From Deltaproteobacteria bacterium (GTDB taxonomy: Bacteria; Myxococcota; Kuafuiibacteriia; Kuafuiibacteriales; Kuafuiibacteriaceae), in the NCBI GenBank assembly GCA_040218735.1, contig JAVJQW010000055.1, positions 114,508-178,507 of the forward strand: a DNA stretch of 64,000 bases, given 5' to 3'. The notes beneath the pieces are model-generated. The model was not told where the DNA came from. It saw only the letters and a list, made by a program, of their open reading frames with translations, and did no database searches. How positions within the stretch are numbered: position 1 is the first letter of the stretch; each line of letters begins with the position of its first letter. Shown here in pieces: positions 10,011 through 25,260 of the stretch. Both the position numbers and the translations under genes were made by a program.

Positions 10011-10346
10011 ATGCGCCGGTTTGCGTTGGTGCTGTTGCTCGCGGCGTGTGACCCGGGGGTGGACCTCGCGGCGCCGGGGACGGTCTGCGCCGATGCGCAG
10101 GACCACTTCCTGGAGTGCGGTGTTGCGCTCGGCATCCTGTCGGGCTCGACGTGCTCCGGCCCGGGGCGACTCGTCGCGGAGTGTGTGGTGGAGCGCGCCG
10201 GGTCGTGTGAGCGGCTCGCGTCGATCACCTACGACCAGTGCATCGCGGAGGCGGCGGAGCGCGCCGCGGAAGCCGCGGACGGACCGGGCTTCGACCCGGT
10301 CAACCTGTTCAACCGGGCGCGGGACCAAGAGGAGGATGATTCATGA
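10011..10346 (+). CDS. Small Cys-rich lipoprotein
   Basis: MRRFALVLLLAAC lipobox; 6 further Cys; fills the gap between lipase and MMPL. Confidence 0.7.
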   Translation: MRRFALVLLLAACDPGVDLAAPGTVCADAQDHFLECGVALGILSGSTCSGPGRLVAECVVERAGSCERLASITYDQCIAEAAERAAEAADGPGFDPVNLFNRARDQEEDDS

Positions 10347-12718
10347 GGCACCTGACGGGATTCGAAGCGAAGGGGCGACGCATCGCCGAGCTGGTCCTCG
10401 CGCACCCGAAGAAGACCGTCGCGGCGTCGCTCGTGACGTTTGTCGCGTTCGCCGCCGGGCTCGTGTTCTCCGCGTTCTCGACCGACTACCGCATCTTCTT
10501 CTCGGCGGAGGACCCGCAGCTGCTGGCGTTCGAGCAGCTCGAGCGCGTGTTCACCAAGACGGACAACGTGTTGTTCGTCGTGCACGACACCCGCGGTGAC
10601 GTGTTCGATCGCGACACCCTCGCGTCGGTTCAGGCCATCACCGAGGCGGCGTGGAAGCTCCCCTACGCGAGCCGCGTCGACTCCCTCACGAACTTCCGCA
10701 GCACACGCGCCGAAGACGAAGATCTGATCGTCGAGTCGCTGCTGAAGACGCCGGCCGCGAAGGCTTCGGACGCCGAGCTCCTCCGCGTGCGCGAGGCCGC
10801 AACGAGTGAGCCGCTGCTGGTCGGCGCGCTGCTGTCGCGTGACTACGCGACGACCGCCGTCAACGTGACGCTCCGCCTCCCCCGGAAGAGCCCGACGGAG
10901 GTCACCGATACCGCCGCCGCCGCGCGTGCGTTGGCGGCCGAGATCCAGGCTGCGCACCCCGGGCTCGAGGTTCGTGCGTGCGGGATGGCGCTGATGAACG
11001 ACGCGTTCATGGAGGCGTCCATCGAGGACATGTCGACGATCGTCCCGATCATGTACGCGGTGATGCTGCTCGTCATGATGCTGCTGCTGCGGAGCGGGCG
11101 GGCGACGGCGGCGATCGTCGCGATCGTTGCGCTCGCGTCGGGGGCGACCATGGGGCTCGGCGGGTGGCTCGGCTATCCGCTCACGCCGGTGACGGCTTCG
11201 GCGCCGACGATCGTACTCACCCTCGCGGTCGCCGACGGCGTGCATATCTTTTCGTCGGTTCGCGAATATCTCGCGGCGGGCTACGACCGCCGAAACGCGG
11301 TCATCGAGTCACTCACGATCAATTTCCGTCCGGTGGTGCTCACCAGCGTGACGACGATGATCGGGTTCCTCTGTCTCAACTTCGCGGAAGCGCCTCCGTA
11401 CTGGCACCTCGCAAACATGACCTCGGTGGGGATCCTGTTTGCGTTGGTCTTCTCGGTGACGCTCCTGCCCGTGATGCTCGTGTGGCTCGACATCACGGAG
11501 CGCGCGGATGCTCCGAAGCGGTACGCGTGGCTGGATCGCTTCGCGGTCTTCGCGATCTCCGCCCCGAAGCTTTCGCTCGCGGTGGCGGCGGTGGCGACCG
11601 CAGTGCTCGGTCTCGCGGCCGCGCGCCTGCAATCCAACGATCACTTCCTGCAGTACTTCGACCACTCGATCGAGTTCCGCGGCGACGCGGAGTTCACGAT
11701 GGAGCACCTCTCGGGGATCTACACGCTGGAGTACGCGATCGAGAGCGGCGAGGAGGGTGGGATCTCCGAGCCCGCGTATCTGGAGCGCCTCGAAGCGTTC
11801 ACCGGGTGGCTCCGTGCACAGCCCGAGGTCGACCACGTCTACAGCTACACGGACATCGTGAAGCGGCTGAACCGCGACCTGAACGGGGGCGACACCGCAT
11901 TCATGAAGCTCCCAGAGAGCCGCGAGCTCGCGAGTCAGTACCTTGTGCTCTACGAGATGTCGCTACCGTTCGGCCTCGACCTCACCGACCGCGTCGACAT
12001 CAAGAAGTCCGCGACGCGTGTGTCGGTGATCGCCAAGGACCTCTCCAGCAGTCAGATGAAGGCGTTCAAGGAGCGCTCGGAGCACTGGCTGAAACGCAAC
12101 ACCCCCCAACCCATGCACGCCCTCGCGACGAGCCCGGTGGTGATCTTCTCGCACCTCGCGGACCGGAACACGAAGAGCATGATGCGCGGGAACGTCGCGT
12201 CGCTGGTGATGATCTCGCTGTGCCTCATCCTCGCGCTCGCGAGCCTGAGGCTTGGGCTGCTGTCGATCATCCCGAACGTCCTCCCGATCGTCTTCGGCTA
12301 CGGGTTGTGGTCGTTGATGTTCTCGGAGATCAACATCGTCGCGTCGATCGTGGGGACGATCTGCCTCGGCATCATCGTCGACGACACGATTCACTTTCTG
12401 TCGAAGTTCCAGTTCAAGCGGCGCGTCGAGGGGCTCGATGCTCGGAGCGCCGTCATCGAGACGATCAAGAACGTCGGTCCTGCGCTGATCGTCACCACGC
12501 TCATCCTGGGGTGTGGGTTCGGCGTCCTCACGCAGTCCGGCTTCCAGATGAACCAGTACCTGGGATTGATGACCGTGATGGTCGTCGGCTTCGCGCTCGT
12601 CGCGGACCTGCTGATCCTCCCGCCGCTACTCGTGGCGCTCGAAGGGCGCCGACGTCCCGCAGAGACGTACACCAATGAATTCTCCCCGTCCGCGCACGGG
12701 GCCCGAGGAGTGCTCTGA
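10343..12718 (+). CDS. MMPL/RND family transporter
   Basis: Two TM bundles, AVADGVH and GIIVDDTIH motifs, LTSVTTMIGF. Confidence 0.9.
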   Translation: MRHLTGFEAKGRRIAELVLAHPKKTVAASLVTFVAFAAGLVFSAFSTDYRIFFSAEDPQLLAFEQLERVFTKTDNVLFVVHDTRGDVFDRDTLASVQAITEAAWKLPYASRVDSLTNFRSTRAEDEDLIVESLLKTPAAKASDAELLRVREAATSEPLLVGALLSRDYATTAVNVTLRLPRKSPTEVTDTAAAARALAAEIQAAHPGLEVRACGMALMNDAFMEASIEDMSTIVPIMYAVMLLVMMLLLRSGRATAAIVAIVALASGATMGLGGWLGYPLTPVTASAPTIVLTLAVADGVHIFSSVREYLAAGYDRRNAVIESLTINFRPVVLTSVTTMIGFLCLNFAEAPPYWHLANMTSVGILFALVFSVTLLPVMLVWLDITERADAPKRYAWLDRFAVFAISAPKLSLAVAAVATAVLGLAAARLQSNDHFLQYFDHSIEFRGDAEFTMEHLSGIYTLEYAIESGEEGGISEPAYLERLEAFTGWLRAQPEVDHVYSYTDIVKRLNRDLNGGDTAFMKLPESRELASQYLVLYEMSLPFGLDLTDRVDIKKSATRVSVIAKDLSSSQMKAFKERSEHWLKRNTPQPMHALATSPVVIFSHLADRNTKSMMRGNVASLVMISLCLILALASLRLGLLSIIPNVLPIVFGYGLWSLMFSEINIVASIVGTICLGIIVDDTIHFLSKFQFKRRVEGLDARSAVIETIKNVGPALIVTTLILGCGFGVLTQSGFQMNQYLGLMTVMVVGFALVADLLILPPLLVALEGRRRPAETYTNEFSPSAHGARGVL

Positions 12719-12719
12719 G

Positions 12720-13511
12720 ATGAAGAAATCCACTACGATCACCGCCGTCGCGAGCGTTCTGCTCGCCGCCCCCGTCGCCTTCGCAGCGCTCGACCGCGGC
12801 GAAGAGATCGCAAAGAAAGTCGCCGCCGCCAACCTGGGGTACGGGGACATGACCGCGCACCTCGAGATGATCCTCGAGGACGCCGAGGGGCAGTCGAGCC
12901 GCCGCGTCATGCGCGTGAAGTCGCTCGAGCGCCGCGCCGCCGACCAGGGTGACCTCTCCCTCGTGGTCTTCGAGAGCCCGCGCGACGTGAAGGGCATGGC
13001 GCTCCTCTCCCACGCGGGGGTCCTCGACGGTGACGAGCAGTGGCTCTACCTTCCCGCCGCCAAGCGGGTCCGGCGCATCGCCGGCGGAAACACGTCGGGG
13101 CCGTTCGTCGGGAGTGAGTTCGCCTACGAGGACATCACGGGCACCGAAGTCGGAAAGTACGCCTGGCACTACGTCGCCGAGGGCCAGTGCCCCGGCGCCG
13201 CAGGGAAGTGCTTCCAACTCGAGTCGCGCCCGAAGTACGACGACTCCGGCTACAGCCGCCGGGTGGTGTGGGTCGACGAGTCGGCCTACCGGGTACACAA
13301 GATCGACTTCTACGATCGACGCGACGCGCTCCTGAAGACGCTCACGTACAAGAACTACAAGCAGCACGGTAAGTTCTGGCGGGCCGGTGAGTGGGAGATG
13401 AAGAACCACCAGAGCGGCAAGAAGACCCGGCTGGTGTTCACCGACTTCTCGTTCGGCAACGGCTTCGAAGAGAGTGACTTCCACCGCTCCGTGCTGAAGC
13501 GCATCCGCTGA
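12720..13511 (+). CDS. Outer-membrane lipoprotein-sorting protein (LolA-like)
   Basis: Signal peptide; FESPRDVKGMALL, QWLYLPAAKRVRRI, FVGSEFAYED. Confidence 0.85.
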   Translation: MKKSTTITAVASVLLAAPVAFAALDRGEEIAKKVAAANLGYGDMTAHLEMILEDAEGQSSRRVMRVKSLERRAADQGDLSLVVFESPRDVKGMALLSHAGVLDGDEQWLYLPAAKRVRRIAGGNTSGPFVGSEFAYEDITGTEVGKYAWHYVAEGQCPGAAGKCFQLESRPKYDDSGYSRRVVWVDESAYRVHKIDFYDRRDALLKTLTYKNYKQHGKFWRAGEWEMKNHQSGKKTRLVFTDFSFGNGFEESDFHRSVLKRIR

Positions 13512-13522
13512 GGAGCGACCCA

Positions 13523-14710
13523 GTGGTGCGTACGTCTCTCGTTCTGCTCGCGCTGTTCGTGTCCTCCAACGCGTACGCGCTGGAGATCGCGGGAGACGTA
13601 CGTGCGGACGGTCGGGTGTTCCTGGCCGCGCCGCGGCACCTCGGACAACGGCTCGGGACGGCGCCGTCGGTCGCGATCTCACCCATCGCTTCGGTGCAGA
13701 CCGACGACCTGACCCACACGCTGACGGTGCAACCCTTCTTGCGCGTGGACGCCGCCGACGCCGCGCGCACGCATTGGGATCTTCGGCAGGCGGACTATCA
13801 GTTCGCGACGGGTGGGTTCTCGTTCGGCGCGGGCATCGGGACGTTCACGTCCGGCGTCCTCGATACACACCGCGTCGTCGACGTCGTGAATCAGCGGGAT
13901 CTCGTCGAGGACCTCGACGGCAGCGTGAAGCTGGGGCAGCCGTACGTGGGTATCGGCTACGCGACGGGGCCGTGGGCGTTTACGTTCCAGTACCTGCCGT
14001 ATCACCGCAAACGGACGTTCCCGGGCGAGCGCGGTCGACTCCGGTTCCCGCTCCTGGTCGACGACGACGAGGTCCTCTACGAGTCCAAGCTGGGCCCCTG
14101 GCACCCGTCCTTCGCGGCGCGCGCTTCGGTCGCCACGGGGCCCTTCGACATCGGAGTTTCTGGGTTCTCGGGCTTGTCGCGCGAGCCGCGGTTCTTCGGT
14201 CAGATCTTCGATGCCTCGGCGGTGGTTCCGCAGTACGACTTCTTGCAGCAGGCGGCGGTCGACGCGCAGTGGACGCTCGACGCGTTGATCATCAAGGGGG
14301 AGGCCGCGGCGCGGTGGTGGTCGAAGGACCTCCGCTTCTTCGTCGCCGCGGGCGGCGGCGCCGAGTACCACTTCTACGATCTGTGGGGCACGGGCGCGGA
14401 CCTCGCGTTCCTCGCCGAGTACCACTTCGACGGACGCGCGCCGGACGCGCCGGTCGCGTTCTTCGACAACGACGTCGTCACCGGCCTGCGCCTCGCGATC
14501 AACGACACCGGCGACACCCAATTCATCGCCGGCGTCGTCCGCGACCTCGCGAACACCGCGACGTACGCCCGCGCGCAGATCTTCCGCCGCTTCGGCGACC
14601 GCTGGCGCGCGGCGCTCGAGGCGCGGATGTTCCTCGGTCAGGAAGGCCAGCTCGAGAGCGGCCTCCTCGACGACGACTACCTGCAGGGGAGCGTGGTCTA
14701 CTTCTTCTGA
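13523..14710 (+). CDS. Putative outer-membrane beta-barrel protein
   Basis: Signal peptide, VDVVNQRDLVED motif, alternating beta strands, C-terminal YFF; typical MMPL-LolA neighbour. Confidence 0.7.
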   Translation: MVRTSLVLLALFVSSNAYALEIAGDVRADGRVFLAAPRHLGQRLGTAPSVAISPIASVQTDDLTHTLTVQPFLRVDAADAARTHWDLRQADYQFATGGFSFGAGIGTFTSGVLDTHRVVDVVNQRDLVEDLDGSVKLGQPYVGIGYATGPWAFTFQYLPYHRKRTFPGERGRLRFPLLVDDDEVLYESKLGPWHPSFAARASVATGPFDIGVSGFSGLSREPRFFGQIFDASAVVPQYDFLQQAAVDAQWTLDALIIKGEAAARWWSKDLRFFVAAGGGAEYHFYDLWGTGADLAFLAEYHFDGRAPDAPVAFFDNDVVTGLRLAINDTGDTQFIAGVVRDLANTATYARAQIFRRFGDRWRAALEARMFLGQEGQLESGLLDDDYLQGSVVYFF

Positions 14711-14713
14711 GCG

Positions 14714-15049
14714 CTAGGTCTTCAGCGCTTCGAATCCATCCTTCGGGAATCCCACGAAGAGCTTCTTCCCCGAGCGAATCAGCGGCGCGCGCAGGTTGCC
14801 CGTGGGGCCCAGCATCGCGGCGACGATCGTGTCGCGGTCGTCCTTCTTCGGGTCGAAGCGAGTCAGCTTCGTGCCCTTGGCGACGTGGACTTCGGTCGCG
14901 CCGTCGAGCAGCTGCTCCGCGTAGTCCCGTCCGAGTTTCTTGCTCGCCGACACCGTCTCTTTCGGCTCGGCGGACGCTTGCGCGAGAAACTCCCGCGCTC
15001 GTTTGCAAGACGTTCAACCGTTGCGGTGGTAGTACCAGTCGATCTTCAT
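14714..15049 (-). CDS. ArsC/thioredoxin-fold (seleno)protein with in-frame UGA (UxxC)
   Basis: ATG at 15049 overlaps upstream stop; MKIDWYYHRNG-TGA(15014-15016)-TSCKRAREFL... continues in frame to LGPTGNLRAPLIRSGKKLFVGF. Confidence 0.85.
14980..14998 (-). promoter_or_regulatory. Candidate bacterial SECIS hairpin
   Basis: mRNA GCGCGGGAGUUUCUCGCGC begins 16 nt after the UGA; 7-8 bp stem (one G-U) with G in the apical loop. Confidence 0.6.
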
Positions 15050-16473
15050 CGCGCCGCCTCGTTAGCGGGTCGTGCTGAGATACGCAACCGATCACGTCGA
15101 AGCGCCGATCGCACGACCTTTCCGCGCTCGGAGCGAGGCAACACCTCCACGAGCTCGACGGAGGCCGGGACCATGTACACCGGCAGCGCGCGCCGGCACG
15201 CGGCCTGGATGTCCGCAGCTGAGAGCCGGGCGTTCGGCTCGAGGACCACGTGCGCCACGACGCGTTCCCCCGTCCGCCGATCCGGCACGCCGACCACCGC
15301 GCAGGCATGAACGCCGGGTAGGGCGTCGATCGCCGCTTCGATCTCCCGTGGGCCGACGCGGTGGCCTGCGACCGAGATCATGTCGTCGCGGCGCCCGACG
15401 ATGAAGAGGTAGCCGTCTTCGTCCAGGTAACCCATGTCGCGGGTTCGGAGCCACCCGTCCCGAACGACTTCGGCCGTCGCGGCCGGGTCACCCAGGTAAC
15501 CGGACATGACGTTGTCGCCGCGCGCGAAGATCTCACCGAGCACATGGGCCGGCGCCGGCGCGCCGTCGTCGACGCGCACCGAAATCTCGACGCCCGGGAT
15601 CGCGATACCCACCGAGCCGGGTTTTCGGTCGAGGTCTTCGGGCGGGAGATAACTCAGGCGCGCCGAAGCCTCGGTCTGCCCGTACATGCAGAAGAGCCGG
15701 GCGTTCGAGAACGCGCGGCGCACGCGGGTTGCGAGAGGCGTGGGCATCGGTGCACCGGCCTGGGTCACGTAGCGAAGGCTCGTGAGGTCGTAGGTTGCGA
15801 TGCCGGGGGTGTCCAAAATCCGCAGAAACGTCGAAGGCACCGCCGAAAGACCGGTGCAGCGGTAGGTCTGAATCGTGTCGAGGAGCGGTCCGACGAACGC
15901 GGCGGATCCGGCCTCGACGATCGTACCGCCCGCGTGGAGTTGAGTATTCAGGACCGAGAACCCATACGCGTGGTGGTTCGGGAGGCACGCCGCGACTCGA
16001 TCCTGATCGGACAGCCCGAGGTATTCCACGATGGCGCGGGTGTTGGCTTCGATGTTGGCGTGCGTGAGCATGACGCCCTTGGGCTCCGCCGTGGTCCCCG
16101 AGGTGTGAAAGATCATCGCGACGTCCGCGCCGACGTCACGACGCTGCGGTGTCCTTGGCTCGATCTGGTCCCGCGACCGCACGACGAGGCACGCCCCGGC
16201 GCGCTCGGCGATCTCCGCGTAGCGTTTATCGCCTTCCCCCAGCGGAATCGAGACGGCGCCCGCCATCGAGGCGCCGTAGGTCGCGACGAGGAAGTCCAGA
16301 CCCCGCGTCATGACGACGACACGATCGCCCGGACCGACGCCGAGCCGTGCGGCGAAGTCGCGGACCAGAGTGAGCAGCCGGCCGTAGGTCGTGACCTCGT
16401 CCGCGTCGACATGTGCGATGCGCTCGGGATCTTCGAGCGCGTGCCGAATGAGTGCGTCGTGAATCGCGGTCAT
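15046..16473 (-). CDS. Class I adenylate-forming enzyme (acyl-CoA ligase-like)
   Basis: IFHTSGTTAEPKGVMLTH, MYGQTEA, WLRTRDMG, GRRDDMI, LPRSERGKV. Confidence 0.9.
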   Translation of the reverse strand: MTAIHDALIRHALEDPERIAHVDADEVTTYGRLLTLVRDFAARLGVGPGDRVVVMTRGLDFLVATYGASMAGAVSIPLGEGDKRYAEIAERAGACLVVRSRDQIEPRTPQRRDVGADVAMIFHTSGTTAEPKGVMLTHANIEANTRAIVEYLGLSDQDRVAACLPNHHAYGFSVLNTQLHAGGTIVEAGSAAFVGPLLDTIQTYRCTGLSAVPSTFLRILDTPGIATYDLTSLRYVTQAGAPMPTPLATRVRRAFSNARLFCMYGQTEASARLSYLPPEDLDRKPGSVGIAIPGVEISVRVDDGAPAPAHVLGEIFARGDNVMSGYLGDPAATAEVVRDGWLRTRDMGYLDEDGYLFIVGRRDDMISVAGHRVGPREIEAAIDALPGVHACAVVGVPDRRTGERVVAHVVLEPNARLSAADIQAACRRALPVYMVPASVELVEVLPRSERGKVVRSALRRDRLRISARPANEAAR

Positions 16474-17294
16474 GGGTAGCTCCCTCCGGCCGGCACCACG
16501 GTCCCGATGTCGAGCGTGGCGCCGGCGGCGATTTTCGCGCGCGCGCCGACGATGACTCCGCGGTCGATGGTCACGCCGTGGCCGATGCGCGCGGCGTCGC
16601 CGATCTGGACGTCGCTGTGGAGCCAACACCCCGGACCGAGGCGAGCCGCGCCGCCGACTGTGCAGCCCGGACCAATGAGGCACTCCGCACCCACGATGCT
16701 GCCGTCCCCCACGTAGACGCCGGGGCCGACCTTCACACTCTCCAGGAGCTGCGCGCCCCGGCCGATTCGCACCGGCGCGAGGGTCAGCGTCCGGCCCATG
16801 GCCGCGTGACACGCGATGACGACGCCGGCGGAGATCTGCGCGTCGCGTTCGACGGCGATCAGGGAGGGGTCGAGCATCACCGGATCCGAGGAGCTCTGAA
16901 AGCCGAACGCGACGCGCGCGCCGAGCGCTCGGAGCATGAGCGTGCGCAGCGTGGTCGTCGAGAACATCAACGGTCGCCACACCGGGAGATACATGACGCG
17001 CATGAGCGCGAAGTGCAGGAGCCACACGATGACGCCACGGTCCTTCGGGACCGCGTAGATTCCTGCTTCGAGCTTCGGGAGGAGGTTTCGGACGAGCCAC
17101 GCCATGGCGCAGAGGCCGACGAGGTAGAGGAGCACACCGATGGGGAGGAGCAGCGCTTGGACGATCGGCGCCAGCGCCAGTCGTTGGTGTACGGCGACGA
17201 GCGCAGCGGCAGGGGGCCCCGCGATCGTCAAGAACATCGCGACGAAAAGTGCGTCGAACGCCACGTACATCGAGGTGGGGACATCGGCTTTCAT
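16470..17294 (-). CDS. Membrane-anchored hexapeptide-repeat (LbH) acyltransferase-like protein
   Basis: Two N-terminal TM helices, GIYAV...W, LRALGARV, long [IV]Gxxxx repeats. Confidence 0.75.
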   Translation of the reverse strand: MKADVPTSMYVAFDALFVAMFLTIAGPPAAALVAVHQRLALAPIVQALLLPIGVLLYLVGLCAMAWLVRNLLPKLEAGIYAVPKDRGVIVWLLHFALMRVMYLPVWRPLMFSTTTLRTLMLRALGARVAFGFQSSSDPVMLDPSLIAVERDAQISAGVVIACHAAMGRTLTLAPVRIGRGAQLLESVKVGPGVYVGDGSIVGAECLIGPGCTVGGAARLGPGCWLHSDVQIGDAARIGHGVTIDRGVIVGARAKIAAGATLDIGTVVPAGGSYP

Positions 17295-18790
17295 GACAGA
17301 GGCTCCTGCACCAGCAGACGGGGTTTGGTCTGGGCGTGTCCGCGTTTGAAGGCGAACGACGGGTGATCGGGCGCGACGCGGCGCGCGGTGAGCGGGTCGA
17401 GCGTCCCGTTTGCGACGTACCGTCGGTAGATCGGGTTGAGCTCTGCGAGTGCGAGCTCCACCGCCGAGACCTCTCCGGGCGCGATGGGTTCGTCCACGCA
17501 CAACTCGAGCCCGCGGCCCGACGCCGCAGGAGCGACGAGGCACGATCGATCGCGGGTGAGTTGCTTCAGCACCTCCACCAGCTCTGCTTCGCTGACGGAG
17601 GCGGGGCCGAGGCTGATCTGGTTGGCGCTCTTGTGCGAGAAATGAACGATGGGAGATCGGTGAAAATAGCCCGTGCACGTCACGACGTCCTGAAGCCGAT
17701 AGCGCACCAAACCCATCGCCGTGGTGAGTACGAGCTCGTAGGATTGCCCGGGTTCCAGCGCCCACATGGGGACGAGGTTCCGCGCGTGAGGCTCCATCCC
17801 CAGCGGGAGGAGCTCGAACACGTGGGCTCCGGGGTGGAGGGGGCCCCCGGGTGCGCCGTCGGCGCGCGGGACGTTCATCCACCCCTCGGTCGCGGAGTAG
17901 GTCGCGTCGACGAACGGGACGCCGCCGACCACGCGCCGGAGCGCGGGGAGCTGCAGACCGCACGTGGATGACTTCCAGCAGATGACCGCCTGGAGGGTGG
18001 GCCAGAGCGCTCCGAGGTCATCACCGCCGTCGAGGACCGAACGGATGAGATCGCGTCGAGCGTCGTCGAGTCGGGCCGGTGGGAGCGGCGCCGGCGGCTG
18101 CGCGCGGCCGGCGAGGATCGGCTCGTACAGGGCGCGGTTCGCGCCGAGGTTTTCGAAGAAACGAGAGATCGCCGCCGGGGTGATGCCGACCATCGCGCTC
18201 AGGTCGGTGGCGACGGCGTAGAGCGGCCCCCATCGCGAGAACGATTCTTCGCTCGCGAGGACCTCGATCGGGAACCCATACAACCTACGCAGGAACGCGG
18301 GGATCGTGCGGTAGTTGAAGTGACTGATGAGTCCGACTTCGACGCCGGAGGGCGAGAACTCAACGGGTTTCGTGGCCGCGAAGTACAGCACCGGACGTGA
18401 CAAGAGCTTCGGAAATCTGGAGGTGAGTCCTCGGAGGAAGGCCGGCGTCGTAGTCTGGAACTGGCGACGGTAGGTCGGTGTGATGGGGAAGAGTTTTCGG
18501 GGGCCTGTTGTTCCGGTGCTCTCGGACCAGTAGAGGATGGGTTCCGCCGACAGCTCGGAGCGCTCCTTCGCGAAGCTCCGCGTCAGCGCGTCGCGGTAGT
18601 CGTCGTACGTGGTGAGCGCGAAGTCGGACAGCGAGGCCGCCCCGCCGCGCCAGAAGGGCGAACGCCGAAGGACGCGCCACGTCTCGGCCCACACCCGCGC
18701 CTGTGCGCGTTCGGGGTTCTGACAGTCGCGCACGAAGGCGCGGTGCGGAAGGAGCGTGCTCGCGCGGAGCAGCGGGCGTGCGATGTTCAT
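17291..18790 (-). CDS. GH3 family acyl-adenylate/amido synthetase
   Basis: LTTYDDY, STGTTGPRKLFPIT, YSATEG, YELVLTTAMGLVRYRLQDVV, QTKPR. Confidence 0.85.
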   Translation of the reverse strand: MNIARPLLRASTLLPHRAFVRDCQNPERAQARVWAETWRVLRRSPFWRGGAASLSDFALTTYDDYRDALTRSFAKERSELSAEPILYWSESTGTTGPRKLFPITPTYRRQFQTTTPAFLRGLTSRFPKLLSRPVLYFAATKPVEFSPSGVEVGLISHFNYRTIPAFLRRLYGFPIEVLASEESFSRWGPLYAVATDLSAMVGITPAAISRFFENLGANRALYEPILAGRAQPPAPLPPARLDDARRDLIRSVLDGGDDLGALWPTLQAVICWKSSTCGLQLPALRRVVGGVPFVDATYSATEGWMNVPRADGAPGGPLHPGAHVFELLPLGMEPHARNLVPMWALEPGQSYELVLTTAMGLVRYRLQDVVTCTGYFHRSPIVHFSHKSANQISLGPASVSEAELVEVLKQLTRDRSCLVAPAASGRGLELCVDEPIAPGEVSAVELALAELNPIYRRYVANGTLDPLTARRVAPDHPSFAFKRGHAQTKPRLLVQEPLS

Positions 18791-18803
18791 GGTGTCGTCC
18801 TCC

Positions 18804-20159
18804 TCACAGCGGCCCGTTGCCGGGCGCGGCATCGGTGATGTGCGGTGCGCCGAGCACCGCGAACGCGCGCGCGAGCTCGGGTCGGGTAGCGTCGGGGTGG
18901 ATCGTCTTGTCCAAGACCCCGGCTGCGGCTGCGCCGCCCGCGGCTTCGTACAGCGGGTGGACTTCGCCGCGGACCGCGCGGGCAGCCGCACCGCCCATCG
19001 CTTCGAACCGCGTCGAAGGGTAGGCGAGCCGAAGCTGTCCGGGCAGCGCGAGGACGCTCCCGCCGCCGTACACCTTGCGGATCACGAGGGACACGAGCGG
19101 GGTTCGGCAGCGGGCGTACGCGTAGATGAGCTTCGCGCCGTGGAGGAGGAGCCCGCCCTGTTCCTGGTCCACGCCGGGGAGGAAGCCGGGGACGTCGACG
19201 AGCGTCAGGATCGGCAATCCGAACGCGCTGCAGAGCTGAACGAGGCGCGCGCCCTTACGCGAGGCTTCGCAGTCGAGCACGCCAGCGCGGTGCAGCGGTT
19301 GACTCGCGAGGATGCCGATCGAACGTCCGCCGAGGCGGGCGAGCCCGACGACGAGGTTCTTCGCGTACGCACCCTGGAGCTCCAGGAACGAGCCGCGGTC
19401 GACGATCTCCTCCACGATGGGGTGCACGTCGTACGGCTTTCGCTCCGAAGTGGGGAGAGCGGCTGCGATGCCTCGCGTCACGCGGTCGAGCGGGTCGTCG
19501 TTTGCGACCGCGTTGGCGGGGAGGTACGCGAGCAGGGCGCGCGCGGCGTCGATGGAGCTGGCTTCGTCGTCGGCGGTGACGTGCACGAGGCCGGTCGTGG
19601 TCGCGTGCATCGGGACGCCGCCGAGCGCATCGATCGCGACTTCACGCCCCGTCACGATCTGCGTGACGCGCGGCCCAGTGACGAAGCAGTAGCCGCCGTC
19701 CTCGTGACCGACGACCACGTCCTGCAGCGCCGAACCGTACGCGGCGCCGCCGACGCACAGGCCGAGCACCACGCCGACCTGCGGCACGAGCCCCGACAGG
19801 CGCGCGGTCGCGGCCAGCACCTGCGCGAACGCCTCCATCGCGGCCGGGCCTTCTTCGATACGGACGCCGTCCGAGTCGAACAGCGTGACGACGGGGGTAC
19901 GTCGCCGCTCGGCGAGCTCGAGGAGCCGAAGGATCTTCTGGCCGCCGCTCACGCCGAGCGCTCCGCGCTGCACCATCGGGTCGTGCGCGTAGGCGGCGAC
20001 GGTGCGGCCGTCGATGCGGCCGAACCCGGCGATGACGCCGTCTTCACCGTCCCGTCGCGCGCCCACTTCGACGAAGCTCTCCGCGTCGAAGAGGCGCTCG
20101 ATGCGTTCGCGGACGAGGAGCCGTCCGAGGCGCTTGTGGCGGCGCTCTGCGGCGCTCAT
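18804..20159 (-). CDS. Acyl-CoA carboxylase carboxyltransferase (beta) subunit
   Basis: DGVIAGFGRIDGR, DSDGVRIEEG, GGAAYG, FVTGP, LVDVPGFLPGVDQE, RKVYGGG. Confidence 0.88.
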   Translation of the reverse strand: MSAAERRHKRLGRLLVRERIERLFDAESFVEVGARRDGEDGVIAGFGRIDGRTVAAYAHDPMVQRGALGVSGGQKILRLLELAERRRTPVVTLFDSDGVRIEEGPAAMEAFAQVLAATARLSGLVPQVGVVLGLCVGGAAYGSALQDVVVGHEDGGYCFVTGPRVTQIVTGREVAIDALGGVPMHATTTGLVHVTADDEASSIDAARALLAYLPANAVANDDPLDRVTRGIAAALPTSERKPYDVHPIVEEIVDRGSFLELQGAYAKNLVVGLARLGGRSIGILASQPLHRAGVLDCEASRKGARLVQLCSAFGLPILTLVDVPGFLPGVDQEQGGLLLHGAKLIYAYARCRTPLVSLVIRKVYGGGSVLALPGQLRLAYPSTRFEAMGGAAARAVRGEVHPLYEAAGGAAAAGVLDKTIHPDATRPELARAFAVLGAPHITDAAPGNGPL

Positions 20160-20407
20160 GCCGTCGCTCCCACGCGCTCTTCGAGGAACAGCACGAGCTT
20201 CTCGACGGTGTCGACGCCGTGGTACGCGCTGGGTTCGGCTTTGTACCCGAAGTCCTTCTGTAGCAGCAGGATGAAGTCGACAACGTCGAGGCTGTCGAGC
20301 CCCAACGTCGCGGTGAAGTTTGCGTCGTCTTCGATGACTTCTCGGTCGACGGAGAAGTCATCGGTGAGGATTCGAATCACGTGGGATCGGATGTCGTTTC
20401 GAGTCAT
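20156..20407 (-). CDS. Acyl carrier protein
   Basis: 83 aa, acidic, LGLDSLDVVD phosphopantetheine motif. Confidence 0.9.
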   Translation of the reverse strand: MTRNDIRSHVIRILTDDFSVDREVIEDDANFTATLGLDSLDVVDFILLLQKDFGYKAEPSAYHGVDTVEKLVLFLEERVGATA

Positions 20408-21420
20408 TTCGATTCTCCTGGGATGCGAATGAGTGCAGCGCCCGCGCAGAAGCCGGCGCCGCCGCCGACCAGCAACACGTTCGCGCCCGGCCGCAGGCGA
20501 GACGAGGTCAGCGCCTCGTCGGTCGCCACGGCCAAAGAAGCGGCGGACATGTTCCCGGTGCGGTGGACGTTGACGAACACCTTGGCGCTGGGGATTCGCA
20601 GGTAGCGCGCGAGGCGATCGAGGATCAGGCGGTTGGGTTGGTGCGGGACGACGAGGTCGATGTCGTCGAAGGTCAGGCGCATCGCGTCGAGGAGGGTGTT
20701 GGCCGCCTGACTCATGCCCTCCAGTGCGGTGAGGAACACCCGCGGACCATCGACCATCTTCAGGAAGTGTTCGCGGCGCGCGGCGGTGTCGGCCGTGGTC
20801 GGTCGACGACTGCCGCCCGCGGGGACGTGGATTGCCTCGGCGCCTTCGCCGTCGGTCATCAGGTGCACGGCGAGGAGCCCTTCACCGACGGGGCCGCGCT
20901 CGAGGAGCAGGCCTCCGGCGCCGTCGCCGAAGAGCGCGAAGGTCCCTCGGTCCGTGGGGTCGATGAGTCGCGAGCGAATGTCCGCCGCGAGGACGAGGAC
21001 GCGCTCGTCACCGGTGAGGATGGAGCGCGCAGCGAGGTCGAGGCCGAAGAGGAACCCACCGCACGCCGCGGCGACGTCGAAGGCCGGCGCGGGCGCGAGC
21101 CCGAGACCGCGTTGGACGAAACACGCGCAGGCGGGGATCGGGTGGTCGGGCGAGGAGGTGCCGACGACGAGGCGATCGACATTTGCGACACCGGCGCGGT
21201 CCAGCACCGTGCGGCCGGCCTCGATGGCGAGGTCGCTCGTGGCCTGGTCGGGCGCGGCCCACCGCCGCTCGCGGATGCCCGTGAGCTTTTCGATCTGCGC
21301 CGCCGTGAGCGGCGCGTCGGCTCGGGCCGCGAGCTCGTCGGTCGTGACGACGCGACCCGGGAGGTAGGAGCCGGTCGAGCGGATACGCAGGCCGGCGTGC
21401 TCGGCGATCAGGAGGCTCAT
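20404..21420 (-). CDS. 3-oxoacyl-ACP synthase III (FabH-like), canonical Cys-His-Asn
   Basis: TGSYLP, TGIRERR, DVAAACGG, LFGDGAG, VPHQPN, TGNMS. Confidence 0.9.
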   Translation of the reverse strand: MSLLIAEHAGLRIRSTGSYLPGRVVTTDELAARADAPLTAAQIEKLTGIRERRWAAPDQATSDLAIEAGRTVLDRAGVANVDRLVVGTSSPDHPIPACACFVQRGLGLAPAPAFDVAAACGGFLFGLDLAARSILTGDERVLVLAADIRSRLIDPTDRGTFALFGDGAGGLLLERGPVGEGLLAVHLMTDGEGAEAIHVPAGGSRRPTTADTAARREHFLKMVDGPRVFLTALEGMSQAANTLLDAMRLTFDDIDLVVPHQPNRLILDRLARYLRIPSAKVFVNVHRTGNMSAASLAVATDEALTSSRLRPGANVLLVGGGAGFCAGAALIRIPGESK

Positions 21421-21656
21421 CGACTCGTCTCCTGCGTCCGTTGGACGAGTCGAACGAGCGCACCGATCGATTCGAACGCCGCGGGTGTCACGTCGCGCGC
21501 GCTCAATCGGACGCCGAAGTCGTCCTCGATCGCGCCGTGCACGAGGACGATGCCGAGGGAGTCGAGCCCGATGGGTTGGTCGTCGCCGAGCGCGGTGACG
21601 TCGAGCGTCGCGTGACGCGAGACGATTCGCGCGAGCCGGTCGCGGATGTCAGACAT
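21417..21656 (-). CDS. Second acyl carrier protein
   Basis: 79 aa from MSDIRDRL; IGLDSLGIV, IEDDFGV, FESIGAL. Confidence 0.85.
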   Translation of the reverse strand: MSDIRDRLARIVSRHATLDVTALGDDQPIGLDSLGIVLVHGAIEDDFGVRLSARDVTPAAFESIGALVRLVQRTQETSR

Positions 21657-22698
21657 GGATGCCTCCCACGGAGTAGATCGCGGCGCCCCACGTGAGGCCG
21701 CCGCCGACGGCGCCGAGGAGCAGGTGCTCGTCGGCCCTGAACAACGGACGCCGATGGTGCAGCGCGAGGAAGAGGCCCGCCGCGCCGCAGTTGCCGTGGT
21801 CGGCGACGCCGTCGAATGTGCAGTCGTGGGCCACACCGAGCGCCGCAGACATCCGTTCGATCGCGGGGCGGCTGCTCTGCTGCGGGATGAAACAGGCGAT
21901 GTCTTCCACGCCGATCGTCGCCGATTCCATCGCGGTCGATGCGGCGTCGGCGCAGCGCAAGGTTCCTTGCTCGAGGAACGCCTCGGGTGCGGCGCGCAGC
22001 CAGTAAGCGCCGGCGTCGATGCGGTCGTGGGTGCAGGGGAAGGGGGCGCCCCCGCCCATCGCGTCGATCGAGCCGTCCGCGTCGAACGTCGATGCCCTCA
22101 GGCCGCCACGGTCGTGAGGGACGATGACCACGGCACCTGCGCCGTCGCCGAGCGCCAGCGCCGCGAGCGGTGCGTCCGGGGGGATCATCAGGGAGAAGGC
22201 GTCGGCGCCGACGACCGCGACGGGCTGGCGCGTCGACGTCGCGAACAGGCAGCCCTGTACGAAGGCGAGGAGGCCCCCCGTGCAGCCGGCCCGAACGTCG
22301 AAGGCCGCGCACCGCGCGCCGACGCGGCCTGCGATCGCGGGCGCGTTGGCGCCCGTGATGCGCGCGGGCGTGCTGGTCGACGTGATGATCGCACCCAGCG
22401 CGCCCGACGACAGGGCGGCGTCGTTCAGCGCCTGCTCGAGCGCGCGGGCGCCGAGGTCGACAGTGCTCGGGGCGTCGTCACGGAATGGCTCGCCGACGGC
22501 GTGCACCCAGTGCCGGTTCGCGACGCCGAGGCGCTCGAAGATCAACGCGTCCATCGCGTCGGCGTCGCGTGCGCCGCGCGGGCCGGTCGCGCCAAGGCGC
22601 TCGACGACCTCGCGGTTGGAGATCGGCGGCCCCGGGAGGTACGCACCGGTCCCGGCGATGCGGCAGCGCGCCGGCGTGTCGATCGTCAGCGCGGTCAT
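21649..22698 (-). CDS. FabH-like ketosynthase III with His replaced by Gln
   Basis: GTGAYLP, DVRAGCTGG, LGDGAGA, FIPQQSS (normally PHQ), HGNCG, GGGLTWG. Confidence 0.85.
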   Translation of the reverse strand: MTALTIDTPARCRIAGTGAYLPGPPISNREVVERLGATGPRGARDADAMDALIFERLGVANRHWVHAVGEPFRDDAPSTVDLGARALEQALNDAALSSGALGAIITSTSTPARITGANAPAIAGRVGARCAAFDVRAGCTGGLLAFVQGCLFATSTRQPVAVVGADAFSLMIPPDAPLAALALGDGAGAVVIVPHDRGGLRASTFDADGSIDAMGGGAPFPCTHDRIDAGAYWLRAAPEAFLEQGTLRCADAASTAMESATIGVEDIACFIPQQSSRPAIERMSAALGVAHDCTFDGVADHGNCGAAGLFLALHHRRPLFRADEHLLLGAVGGGLTWGAAIYSVGGIHV

Positions 22699-24344
22699 GA
22701 CGAGGTCTCCGCGACGAGCGCGCGACACTGCGCGCGCTGCTTCTTGCCGCTCGACGTCTTCGGGAGCGTGTGCGGCGCGGCGAGCACCACGCGTTGCACC
22801 GCGACGCCGACGTGCCGGAGCACGGTCTGCGTGATGCCGCGTTCGAGCGCCCGACGTTCGTTCGGATCCGAGAGTCGCGTCTCGACGGCGATCATCAGCG
22901 CGTCGGCGCCGCGTCGGTCGTCGAAGGCGCTCAGGGCATAGGCGTTGCCCTTGCGGACGCCGGGGAGTGACTCCACGGTTGCTTCGATGTCCTCGGCGTA
23001 GAAGTTACGGCCGCGAACGATGAGTACGTGTTTGGAGCGGCCGATGACGAAGAGCTCACCTCGCTCGTCGAAGTAGCCCAGATCGCCGGTTCGCAACTCA
23101 CCGTCGCGAATGACTTCGTGCGTGGCGGATGGGTCACCGAGGTAACCGGCCATCACCGAGGGGCTGCGGACCGTGATCTCACCGACGCTCCGCGGCTCGA
23201 GCTCGACGCCGTTCGGGTCGCGCACGGCGACGAGGTTTCCGGTCAGCGGCGCGCCGACGGAGACGACCTCCACCGCGTCCGCGGATTCGGTCGCCTGGAC
23301 GGCACGCGGGTGGCTCGCGTCCTGGAGCGCCTCACGCAGAATCCGCTGAACGCGGAGGCCGTCGCCCGGGCGTCCGAGCGAGACGCCGACGCAGCACTCC
23401 GCGAGGCCGTAGGCGCTGCAGAAGCTGGCAGGGTCGAGACCGGCGCGAGCAAAACGATCGTAGAACGCGCGGATGACTTCGGGCTGAATGGGTTCACCGC
23501 CCGAGACGACGAGCCGGAGCGCTCCAAGGTCGAGGCCGCTGAGGACGTCGTCGTCGACGCGCCGGGTGCTGAGTCCGAACGCAAAGCTCGGCGCGGTGGT
23601 GACGGTCGCACGGTGACGCGAGACCGCACGCCACCACGCCGCGGGCTCTTGAATGAAACGCGCCGGCGACATGAGTACGTGCTCGGCCGGTCCGAAGAGC
23701 GCCTGGAACAGCGCGCCGATCAGACCGAAGTCGTGATAGAGCGGCAGCCACGTGACGGCGGTGTCCGTGGGCCCGACCTGCGTGCGCTCGGCGAGAGCGC
23801 GGCAGTTGGCCATGAGGTTTCTCTGCAGCAGGACCGCAGGCTTCGGGAGCGACGTGCTGCCGGAGGTGCACTGGATCAGGCCGATGTCGTCCGGGCTCGG
23901 GTCCTGGTCGACGCCCGGCTCCGCGGTGAGCGTCGCGACGTCACAAATTCCGCGCTCCCCGAAGTTGGCCTCGATCGCCGCGCCGATCGTCGCGTCGGTC
24001 ACGACGAAGCGGGCGCCCGTGGCGCGGGTGATGTGGTCGAGGAGCCGCCGGTAGTCGTCGAGTCGCGCCATCGCAACCGGGGGATACGCAGGCGCGACGG
24101 CGCCGCCCGCGAGCATCACGCCGAAGAGCATCTCGACGAGCTCGAAGCTCGTATCGAGCACCACGATCACCGCGTCGCCGCGCTCCAGGCCTCGACGCCG
24201 GAGCGCCTCGGCACGGCGGCGCGCGCCCTCGTAGATCTCGCCGTACGTTCGGCGCTCCTCGTGGCCGTCGGTGCCGGCGATCACGATGCCCTGGTCACTT
24301 CGTGCGGCGCGTCGCAGCGCGGCGCAGAGGTTGTTCGGCTCCAT
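22695..24344 (-). CDS. Fatty acyl-AMP ligase (FAAL)
   Basis: IQCTSGSTSLPK, WLPLYHDFGLIG, YGLAE, LRTGDLG, GRNFYAEDIE, LPKTSSGKKQR. Confidence 0.9.
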   Translation of the reverse strand: MEPNNLCAALRRAARSDQGIVIAGTDGHEERRTYGEIYEGARRRAEALRRRGLERGDAVIVVLDTSFELVEMLFGVMLAGGAVAPAYPPVAMARLDDYRRLLDHITRATGARFVVTDATIGAAIEANFGERGICDVATLTAEPGVDQDPSPDDIGLIQCTSGSTSLPKPAVLLQRNLMANCRALAERTQVGPTDTAVTWLPLYHDFGLIGALFQALFGPAEHVLMSPARFIQEPAAWWRAVSRHRATVTTAPSFAFGLSTRRVDDDVLSGLDLGALRLVVSGGEPIQPEVIRAFYDRFARAGLDPASFCSAYGLAECCVGVSLGRPGDGLRVQRILREALQDASHPRAVQATESADAVEVVSVGAPLTGNLVAVRDPNGVELEPRSVGEITVRSPSVMAGYLGDPSATHEVIRDGELRTGDLGYFDERGELFVIGRSKHVLIVRGRNFYAEDIEATVESLPGVRKGNAYALSAFDDRRGADALMIAVETRLSDPNERRALERGITQTVLRHVGVAVQRVVLAAPHTLPKTSSGKKQRAQCRALVAETSS

Positions 24345-24359
24345 GCTGCCGAGGACGAG

Positions 24360-24375
24360 TGCAACGGAGGTGCCA
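24360..24375 (-). promoter_or_regulatory. Sigma-54 promoter upstream of the FAAL operon
   Basis: Minus strand TGGCACCTCCGTTGCA matches TGGCAC-N5-TTGC, 15 nt before the ATG. Confidence 0.75.
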
Positions 24376-24445
24376 CCGGTAGCTCGTGGCGAGCGGCGCC
24401 GTCGTGTGCAGAACGCTTTACACCTTGTGTACGCGCCTGCGCGGC

Positions 24446-25216
24446 TTACAGGAGGTTCGTGAGGTGCAGCCCCCCGTCGATCGGGAGCACCGCGCCCGTG
24501 ATCTGACCGGCGACGGGGGAGCACAGGAAGGTGACGAGCCGCGCTACGTCTTCGTTCTTCGACAGGGCGCGCGTCGCGGCCGCGCGTTTCATCTTCCGGC
24601 GCGCGGCGGGGTCGTCGTTGAGCTCCGCGAGGCGTTCGTTGTCGACGAAGCCCGGCGCGACGATGTTCGCGGTGACGCCGTAACGTCCGAAATCGAGCGC
24701 GATGTTGCGCACGAGCCCTTCGAGCGCCGCCTTGACCGTCGAGTTGATCGGCGTCTTCGGCGCGCCCATGCGCCCGAGGTGCGAACCGACCACCACCACC
24801 CGTCCGTCGCGCGCCGCCATCATCTCCTCCAACGCCGGCCCCAGGAGCGCGAAGGGCGCGCGGAGGTCGGTGTTCAGCGAGACGTCGAGGTCCTGCCGGA
24901 ACACGCTGTGCACCTTCGCGTAGCGGTGCATGTGGCCGTGGCTCAGCACGACGATCGTCGGTGCTTCGCCGAGCGCCTCCGTGGCGCGCGCAACGACACC
25001 GGACGCTGCGTCCCAGTCGCTCAAGTCGGCAGGGATGACGTGGGCTTCGCCGCCGCGTTCACGGATCTCGGCGGCGGTCCGGTCGAGGTTTGCCTCGCTC
25101 CGCGCGACGAGCGCGACGCGCACCCCTTCGTCGGCGAGCGCGAGCGCGATCGCCCGGCCGATGCCGCGGCTCGCGCCGGTGATGACGGCGGTTCGTCGTT
25201 CGAGATCGAGGAACAT
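24446..25216 (-). CDS. SDR oxidoreductase (FabG-like) with atypical NxxxK active site
   Basis: TGASRGIG, VTANIVAPG, ITGAVLPIDGG; INSTVK in place of YxxxK. Confidence 0.85.
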   Translation of the reverse strand: MFLDLERRTAVITGASRGIGRAIALALADEGVRVALVARSEANLDRTAAEIRERGGEAHVIPADLSDWDAASGVVARATEALGEAPTIVVLSHGHMHRYAKVHSVFRQDLDVSLNTDLRAPFALLGPALEEMMAARDGRVVVVGSHLGRMGAPKTPINSTVKAALEGLVRNIALDFGRYGVTANIVAPGFVDNERLAELNDDPAARRKMKRAAATRALSKNEDVARLVTFLCSPVAGQITGAVLPIDGGLHLTNLL

Positions 25217-25229
25217 GCGCCGGTGCGAA

Positions 25230-25260
25230 TGCACGAAGCACGCCGGGCACGGTTCCTGCT
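25230..25260. promoter_or_regulatory. Back-to-back divergent sigma-54-like promoters (SDR and MMPL)
   Basis: Minus CGGCGTGCTTCGTGCA (25245-25230) and plus GGGCACGGTTCCTGCT (25245-25260), both GG-N10-GC, 13-15 nt before their starts. Confidence 0.55.

Follow-up and report, generated by a model that had tools for sequence, protein, structure and literature searches.

A UGA-containing ArsC-family (seleno)protein gene, shortened by conventional open reading frame calling, at the end of an acyl-lipid gene cluster

The 64,000-nucleotide stretch of DNA analysed here (the window) carries on its minus strand, at 14714..15049, a gene of 111 codons followed by a TAG stop codon (14716-14714), which we describe as the gene of an ArsC-family (seleno)protein. 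Its start codon (ATG, 15049-15047) overlaps the TGA stop codon (15048-15046) of the preceding acyl-CoA ligase gene in an ATGA (15046..15049, minus strand), exactly as the original prediction had described, and a Shine-Dalgarno-like GAGG (15057..15060, minus strand) is located 7 nt before the ATG within the ligase coding region, where it could function as such. Codon 12 is a TGA (15014..15016, minus strand), for which we propose decoding as selenocysteine (Sec, U) in view of the TGA found in relatives, the existence of Cys forms and the sequence of independent contigs. With TGA translated as U, the protein begins with MKIDWYYHRNGUTSCKRAREFL... and contains U12-T-S-C15; translation thus confirmed that the TGA (15016-15014) lies within HRNG-U-TSC, and likewise that 99 codons separate it from the TAG at 14716-14714, giving the anticipated product of 111 aa. 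The G+C content at third codon positions (GC3) is 0.85, similar to that of the adjacent genes, and reaches 0.91 in the 11 codons 5' of the UGA, a value derived from few codons. In a plain ORF list, the gene is reduced to a frame of 79 aa with a GTG start (14714..14953, minus strand), a truncation artefact that had been recognised beforehand; entry P0001 of a public protein collection is truncated to the same 79 aa, with 97% sequence identity. The gene is therefore hidden only in the sense that a naive ORF track does not see it, but not in the sense of being new, since the curated NCBI model NF041106 and reviews already cover its family.

Upstream of this gene, Pfam and NCBIfam scans, combined with a choice of genes by GC3, revealed a series of minus-strand genes encoding an SDR/FabG-like protein (24446-25234), a fatty acyl-AMP ligase (22695-24524), a KAS III-like protein (21649-22728), a KAS III (20404-21420), a carboxyltransferase (18804-20159), a GH3-like protein (17291-18991), a 274-aa membrane and hexapeptide-repeat (LbH) acyltransferase-like protein (16470-17294; Pfam Hexapep, 60.7 bits) and the AMP-binding acyl-CoA ligase itself (15046-16476; Pfam AMP-binding, 223 bits; AMP-binding_C, 65.6 bits). 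The ligase most likely comprises 476 aa starting from the ATG at 16476, the 684-aa ORF that reaches to 17100 appearing over-extended: the first 284 codons of this ORF (15046-17100) have a GC3 of 0.60 and are rich in Arg and Pro, compared with a GC3 of 0.82 in the remainder. The LbH gene, which was overlooked in the original prediction, is read in a different frame within the over-extended ORF; the N-terminal half of its product is hydrophobic, and its ATG overlaps the GH3 stop codon, also in the form of an ATGA. Three plus-strand genes are convergent with the selenoprotein gene, encoding an MMPL protein (10343-12718), a LolA-like protein (12675-13511) and a protein of 395 aa (13523-14710; GC3 0.90). 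For the latter, neither Pfam nor NCBIfam gave a match, and its sequence ends in ...YFF, a C-terminus typical of outer-membrane beta-barrels. The stop codon of this 395-aa gene lies 3 nt from the TAG of the selenoprotein gene, a gap that leaves no room for a terminator there. Two MMPL/RND-type transporters together with the LolA-like protein flank the cluster (10343-13511 and 25276-27627, both plus strand), which suggests that the lipid product of the cluster may be exported.

The 111-aa product scored 117 bits with NCBIfam model NF041106 ("ArsC family (seleno)protein", ArsC_rel_Se_1), for which the cut-off is 85 bits, and its residues 3-104 aligned with positions 1-105 of the 107 positions of the profile (E 5e-34), which bears out the ArsC-like identity suggested from the sequence. 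Since the segment 5' of the TGA fits the profile from its first position, it is the homologues, rather than a hairpin alone, that settle the reality of the gene. A six-frame search of the 11.6-Mb genome recovered a single NF041106 copy (109.2 bits) with one TGA inside. The match to Pfam PF03960 (ArsC) is a narrow pass, with 26 bits against a gathering threshold of 24, and the scores for Spx/MgsR (TIGR01617, 24.7 bits; cut-off 75.05) and for the Spx/MgsR-type model NF002459 (20.4 bits; cut-off 123) place the protein outside both of these families. With the NF041106 family, the window protein shares a length of about 110 aa, the N-terminal WYYHRNG-U-TSC and an invariant GPTGN-R-P block, and the gene shares the in-frame UGA followed by a hairpin at a fixed distance; the family shows a patchy spread over Myxococcota, Acidobacteriota, Planctomycetota, Gammaproteobacteria and others. 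The window protein differs in that it is only 42-58% identical to the 48 other sequences of the family protein alignment, in that its hairpin has another stem sequence and adopts a minority register, and in that its genomic context at the end of an acyl-lipid cluster was seen in none of the 83 other family loci. Another ArsC-like ORF was noticed at locus L027 (1462-1812, plus strand; contig G038:C30), with an in-frame TGA in ...KSTUTSC... and a downstream hairpin of its own; as it scores only 29 bits with NF041106, it probably represents a second ArsC/Spx-like selenoprotein family.

Relatives were sought by scanning one genome per species, and the best 80 of the 477 that were found were kept. 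The Sec column is occupied by TGA in 80 of these best 80, flanked on both sides by conserved residues (WYYHRNG-U-TSC), and the 80 derive from Myxococcota, Eisenbacteria, Acidobacteriota, Planctomycetota, Gammaproteobacteria and others. Among 401 sampled genomes of the window's own phylum, 12 contain a member above the cut-off, 11 of them with TGA and one with Cys. Full-length forms with Cys at this column were found in L023, P0002, P0003, P0004, P0005, P0006 and P0007, so that the homologues show the alternation of Sec and Cys that the original prediction had proposed to look for; with U read as C, columns C12 and C15 are invariant in an alignment of 49 sequences. Other public gene calls, of which at least 120 are listed, are mostly truncations of 79-97 aa (chiefly 90 aa), and in the truncated entries that were inspected (P0043, P0065 and P0067) the start is an AUG soon after the UGA. 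One NCBI record carries the name 'ArsC family (seleno)protein'. Contigs of four runs from four studies, the probable source sample being excluded, show no difference at 15014-15016, and one of them (X2) is 42 kb long and covers the whole 1.2-kb stretch. All of these contigs keep TGA, neither TGC nor TGT being present, and the codon is not a sequencing error. The ATGA junction is likewise without differences in the bridging contigs X2 record 5, X4 record 9 and X7 record 19; the strains that keep the TGA and the junction are about 99% identical, and hence count as non-independent and silent on wider conservation.

Downstream of the UGA, a hairpin of 8 bp with a 3-nt loop, GCGCGGGA-GUU-UCUCGCGC (14980..14998, minus strand; loop G/U/U at 14990/14989/14988), starts where it had been predicted, with 15 unpaired nt between the UGA and the hairpin and the first paired base at the 16th nt after the UGA. 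Folded alone, it has a free energy of -11.7 kcal/mol, and the distance from the UGA to the loop is 23 nt. The rules for bacterial SECIS elements, in the form in which they are quoted in PMC13188914, comprise a loop of 3-9 nt, a stem of 4-16 bp, a spacing of 16-37 nt, a G at loop position 1 or 2 with G or U as the next base, and a minimum free energy of -7.5 kcal/mol or lower; the window hairpin falls within all of these quoted limits (loop 3, stem 8, GU, spacing 23, -11.7 kcal/mol). In this DNA of 69% G+C, the 71 nt after the UGA are no more stable than shuffled sequences (z = 0.02), so that the hairpin alone proves nothing and its support has to come from comparison. A scan of 14600-15200 against Rfam at E up to 1 gave no match, as expected, since no bacterial SECIS model is curated for this family.

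For this comparison, the 60 nt starting from the UGA were aligned without gaps for 83 members. The helix columns 19-25/32-38 are paired in 86.1% of cells (n = 83), compared with 27.7-45.6% after shifting the 3' strand of the helix by 1-3 columns. Five of the seven stem pairs vary on both sides among the 83 sequences, and the covariation score amounts to 0.263, against 0.118 +/- 0.014 in shuffles, none of 500 of which reached 0.263. Since related sequences may exceed shuffles without any structure, a position control was added: in 71 of the 83 members, a hairpin with 6 bp or more and no interruption begins 17-20 nt from the U of the UGA, whereas elsewhere in the gene no four-offset window exceeded 23 of 83 members and single offsets had a median of 1. 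The loop bases G27, U28 and U29 are conserved to at least 90%, G27 being a third codon position within a codon that itself varies (AAG, GAG, GGG, AGG). The stems vary by lineage (GCGUCCA/UGGACGC, CGCAGGG/CCUUGCG, GCCGAUG/CAUCGGC, and GCGCGGGA/UCUCGCGC in the window), and the encoded amino acids change with them. Most members share a register with i+j = 57, from which the window hairpin and those of a minority of members deviate by one base (i+j = 56). A variant at 14993 (C>T; G>A on the minus strand), present in X2 and X11 from two independent runs, leaves the protein sequence unchanged (synonymous) and strengthens a pair of the stem by changing it from G.U to A-U. The only Cys-form DNA that was compared, L023, contains no stem of at least 4 bp at the site, an anecdotal observation with n = 1 in which the pattern matched 3 of 10 loci.

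The same genome encodes what would be needed for Sec insertion. All four components on which the original prediction depended are present above their curated family cut-offs: selA with 493 bits, selB with 341 bits, selD with 326 bits and tRNA-Sec (selC) with 70.4 bits, the latter also identified by ARAGORN as tRNA-SeC with the anticodon tca. As selD (G000:C18:152317-153240; L010) contains one in-frame TGA, SelD is probably a selenoprotein itself.

An AlphaFold model computed from 49 family sequences (mean pLDDT 93) places residue 12 directly before a helix formed by residues 13-24, which corresponds to the classical redox position of the thioredoxin fold. When about 48,000 PDB representatives were searched with this model, YffB, one Spx-like protein and putative ArsC proteins ranked highest, with Z scores of 7.1-7.5 across 87-92 residues, ahead of NrdH, glutaredoxins and GST N-domains (Z 5-6.8), and the best Foldseek matches were to Spx (E 2.6e-4, TM about 0.5); such moderate scores, with Z below 8 and TM of about 0.5, may reflect only a common arrangement. 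Spx/MgsR (TIGR01617; PDB 1z3e, 3gfk, 6gho) and YffB (PDB 1rw1) likewise possess a thioredoxin-like ArsC fold, with a CxxC-type motif where helix 1 begins and an R-x-P ... GF block near the C-terminus, and in the sequence alignment to Spx the C(U)xxC motif and the R-x-P...GF block match up. The window protein differs from Spx and YffB by the predicted Sec in place of the first Cys. Its middle region is modelled with two strands (53-58 and 61-65), whereas Spx has a helical insert there. Other bacterial UxxC selenoproteins of the thioredoxin fold (Trx-like, Grx-like, DsbA-like and Prx-like) likewise carry Sec as the first residue of the redox motif, have Cys homologues and contain SECIS hairpins in their coding regions; the window protein would belong to a subfamily of the fold separate from these.

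Based on these results, we propose that the product, 111 residues long, has a thioredoxin fold and belongs to subfamily NF041106 of the ArsC/Spx/YffB superfamily, and that it is produced in the following hypothetical sequence of steps: (i) the UGA at codon 12 would be read as selenocysteine; (ii) the 8-bp hairpin with its GUU loop, 15 nt past the UGA, would act as a bacterial SECIS element that recruits SelB-GTP-Sec-tRNA(Sec), with selA, selB, selC and selD supplied by the same genome; (iii) this recruitment would lead to the insertion of Sec instead of termination; and (iv) U12-x-x-C15, located at the N-terminal end of helix 1 in the classical position of a CxxC motif, would most likely alternate between the selenol/thiol and the selenylsulfide state, the protein serving as a small oxidoreductase of the thiol-disulfide type. 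To our knowledge, no member of the NF041106 family has been assayed. The 2026 review describes such selenoprotein families as largely uncharacterised. The original prediction of a Sec redox protein is supported by the family score, the Sec machinery, the Sec/Cys column and the covarying SECIS hairpin; a genome devoid of Sec machinery, homologues lacking Cys or UGA at this position and reads with TGC or TGT were all absent from the results. We therefore regard it as very probable that the gene encodes an ArsC-family protein of NF041106 in which Sec is incorporated under the direction of the SECIS element, and that its linkage to the acyl-lipid genes is specific to the lineage.

The genomic position of the gene invites a different interpretation of its role. 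The selenoprotein gene closes a tightly packed minus-strand acyl-lipid cluster, and its ATGA overlap with the ligase stop codon makes it plausible that both genes are co-transcribed and translationally coupled. The selenoprotein could accordingly be considered a dedicated part of the acyl-lipid pathway, for example a redox helper for thiol-dependent enzymes or a participant in a sulfur or selenium step, with the ATGA coupling reflecting a stoichiometric functional partnership. Such a role is in line with the overlap and the GAGG 7 nt upstream, with the tight packing of the cluster and its second ATGA overlap at the GH3/LbH junction, with the preservation of the arrangement in near-identical strains from other studies (the 42-kb contig X2, X4 and X7), with the lack of a sigma-70-like promoter in 14300-15400, that is, of any promoter-like site upstream of the gene, and with the genes for AMP-binding, CoA-transferase III, SDR and GDSL lipase proteins found near some family members. 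However, when the proteins of the cluster were compared by tblastn with 83 related loci, including up to 10 kb on each side where the contig allowed, homologues of GH3, the carboxyltransferase and KAS III were each found at 0 of 83 loci, and AMP-binding enzymes near 12 of 83, with 24-38% identity and without consistent position or orientation, a frequency that by a rough, uncomputed estimate is about that expected by chance for such a common family. In none of 19 genomes of the same family was a GH3 orthologue with more than 31% identity found, the best GH3 match in the 401-genome phylum sample had 34-38% identity in a stricter first look, and an orthologous cluster was found neither in these 19 genomes nor in that sample. 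Two genomes (G049 and G072) possess both a GH3 homologue and the selenoprotein, on different contigs, and the strains that keep the linkage are too similar (about 99% identity) to count as independent. We therefore consider a partnership with the pathway improbable. Of the original claim, the ATGA overlap with the last gene of a lipid-biosynthetic operon is present in the sequence, and recurrence of the linkage was not found in the 83 related loci.

The genes directly upstream of other family members vary and include those of an HhH-GPD glycosylase, an alpha/beta hydrolase, an SSF transporter and a GDSL lipase, which also speaks against a fixed partner. In a crude survey of start overlaps, 8 of 80 members overlapped a preceding open frame with a length of 150 aa or more, and 6 did so after stricter listing; these counts are indicative only, as open frames are unreliable in high-G+C DNA. 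In one lineage (L053, L061, L062, L063, L089 and L098), an HhH-GPD (endonuclease III-like) glycosylase gene lies directly upstream, and in L053 and L063 the glycosylase and selenoprotein genes overlap by 4 nt. Clustering of the neighbours of 80 loci gave, as the second-largest cluster (57 loci), the selenoprotein gene's own downstream ORF; the largest clusters of real neighbours comprise 17 and 9 loci, with representatives of 518 and 746 aa, respectively, for which Pfam gave no match, and all other clusters contain at most 7 loci. The largest cluster of all, a 'conserved neighbour' in 72 loci (L034-L113), consists of long antisense open frames over the selenoprotein gene itself; it is an artefact caused by high G+C content, by which automated analyses of gene neighbourhoods could be led astray. 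Given the varied upstream partners and the lack of recurrence, the selenoprotein gene gives the impression of a small gene that joins operons of various kinds, and its linkage to the ligase gene is best read as a lineage-specific arrangement and not as a functional partnership throughout the family.

A more specific form of the pathway hypothesis, namely that the selenoprotein gene was captured as the terminal, coupled gene of a cluster comprising the fatty acyl-AMP ligase (FAAL), two KAS III proteins, the carboxyltransferase, the GH3-like protein, the LbH acyltransferase and the acyl-CoA ligase, with MMPL and LolA-like flanks, and now provides a dedicated selenol-based redox component of this pathway, seems to us slightly less probable again. 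If true, it would point to a selenium-dependent pathway for a lipid or natural product.

A function as bona fide arsenate reductase (ArsC), with Sec replacing the catalytic Cys, might be considered on the basis of the Pfam ArsC match (26 bits against 24), of database entries named, for instance, 'arsenate reductase-like glutaredoxin family protein' and of putative arsenate reductases among the structural neighbours. The equivalog TIGR00014 of the glutaredoxin-coupled arsenate reductase, which is defined by a catalytic Cys together with an Arg triad, is absent from the four NCBIfam families matched at E up to 0.01, none of the four being an equivalog for this function, and no match to an arsenic-resistance family was obtained among the neighbouring window proteins that were scanned. 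The UxxC motif is that of Spx-like and ArsC-like proteins, and the entries of the 2026 review separate TIGR00014 (UxxS) from NF041106 (UxxC). An arsenate-reductase role of the window protein is thus not supported by its sequence, and we consider it very unlikely.

Least likely of all is that the TGA is a true stop codon and that the gene is a decayed Cys form (pseudogene) or yields only the 79-aa product of the GTG ORF, as plain ORF calling, similar public calls (P0001 and many 90-aa entries) and a local fold unexceptional among shuffles could suggest, since TGA with the conserved 11 upstream residues (WYYHRNG) in 80 of the 80 best related loci from many phyla is not repeated decay, products of 79 to 90 aa would in the model lack strand 1 and the redox motif, the 11 upstream codons have a GC3 of 0.91 (few codons), the SECIS hairpin covaries and the Sec machinery is complete.

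In summary, the window contains a real selenoprotein gene of a family that is already catalogued, and the present analysis amounts to an annotation rescue. Tables in PMC1794560 (2006) include ArsC-like selenoproteins, and the GOS selenoproteome study (PMC2398784, 2008) contains 'Arsenate reductase 2, cd03032, UxxC' with 42 Sec sequences. The lists of the 2022 and 2026 reviews include 'Arsenate reductase-like protein, UxxC', to which the 2026 review adds the model NF041106 and, as its reference 61, the 2008 GOS paper. The only unusual feature of the window gene is its linkage to a lipid-type cluster, for which comparative support is lacking; this linkage is the only potentially new element and would matter only given a functional tie to the pathway. 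The gene provides a clean case of stop-to-stop ORF calling truncating a selenoprotein, in which the corrected model regains the redox motif, and most of the public family entries listed are truncations of the same kind (79-97 aa). Moreover, the comparison across the family shows that the codons for helix 1 also hold the SECIS hairpin, with the loop G persisting at a third codon position despite changing amino acids. That the same bases are under constraint both as RNA and as protein makes this a textbook example.
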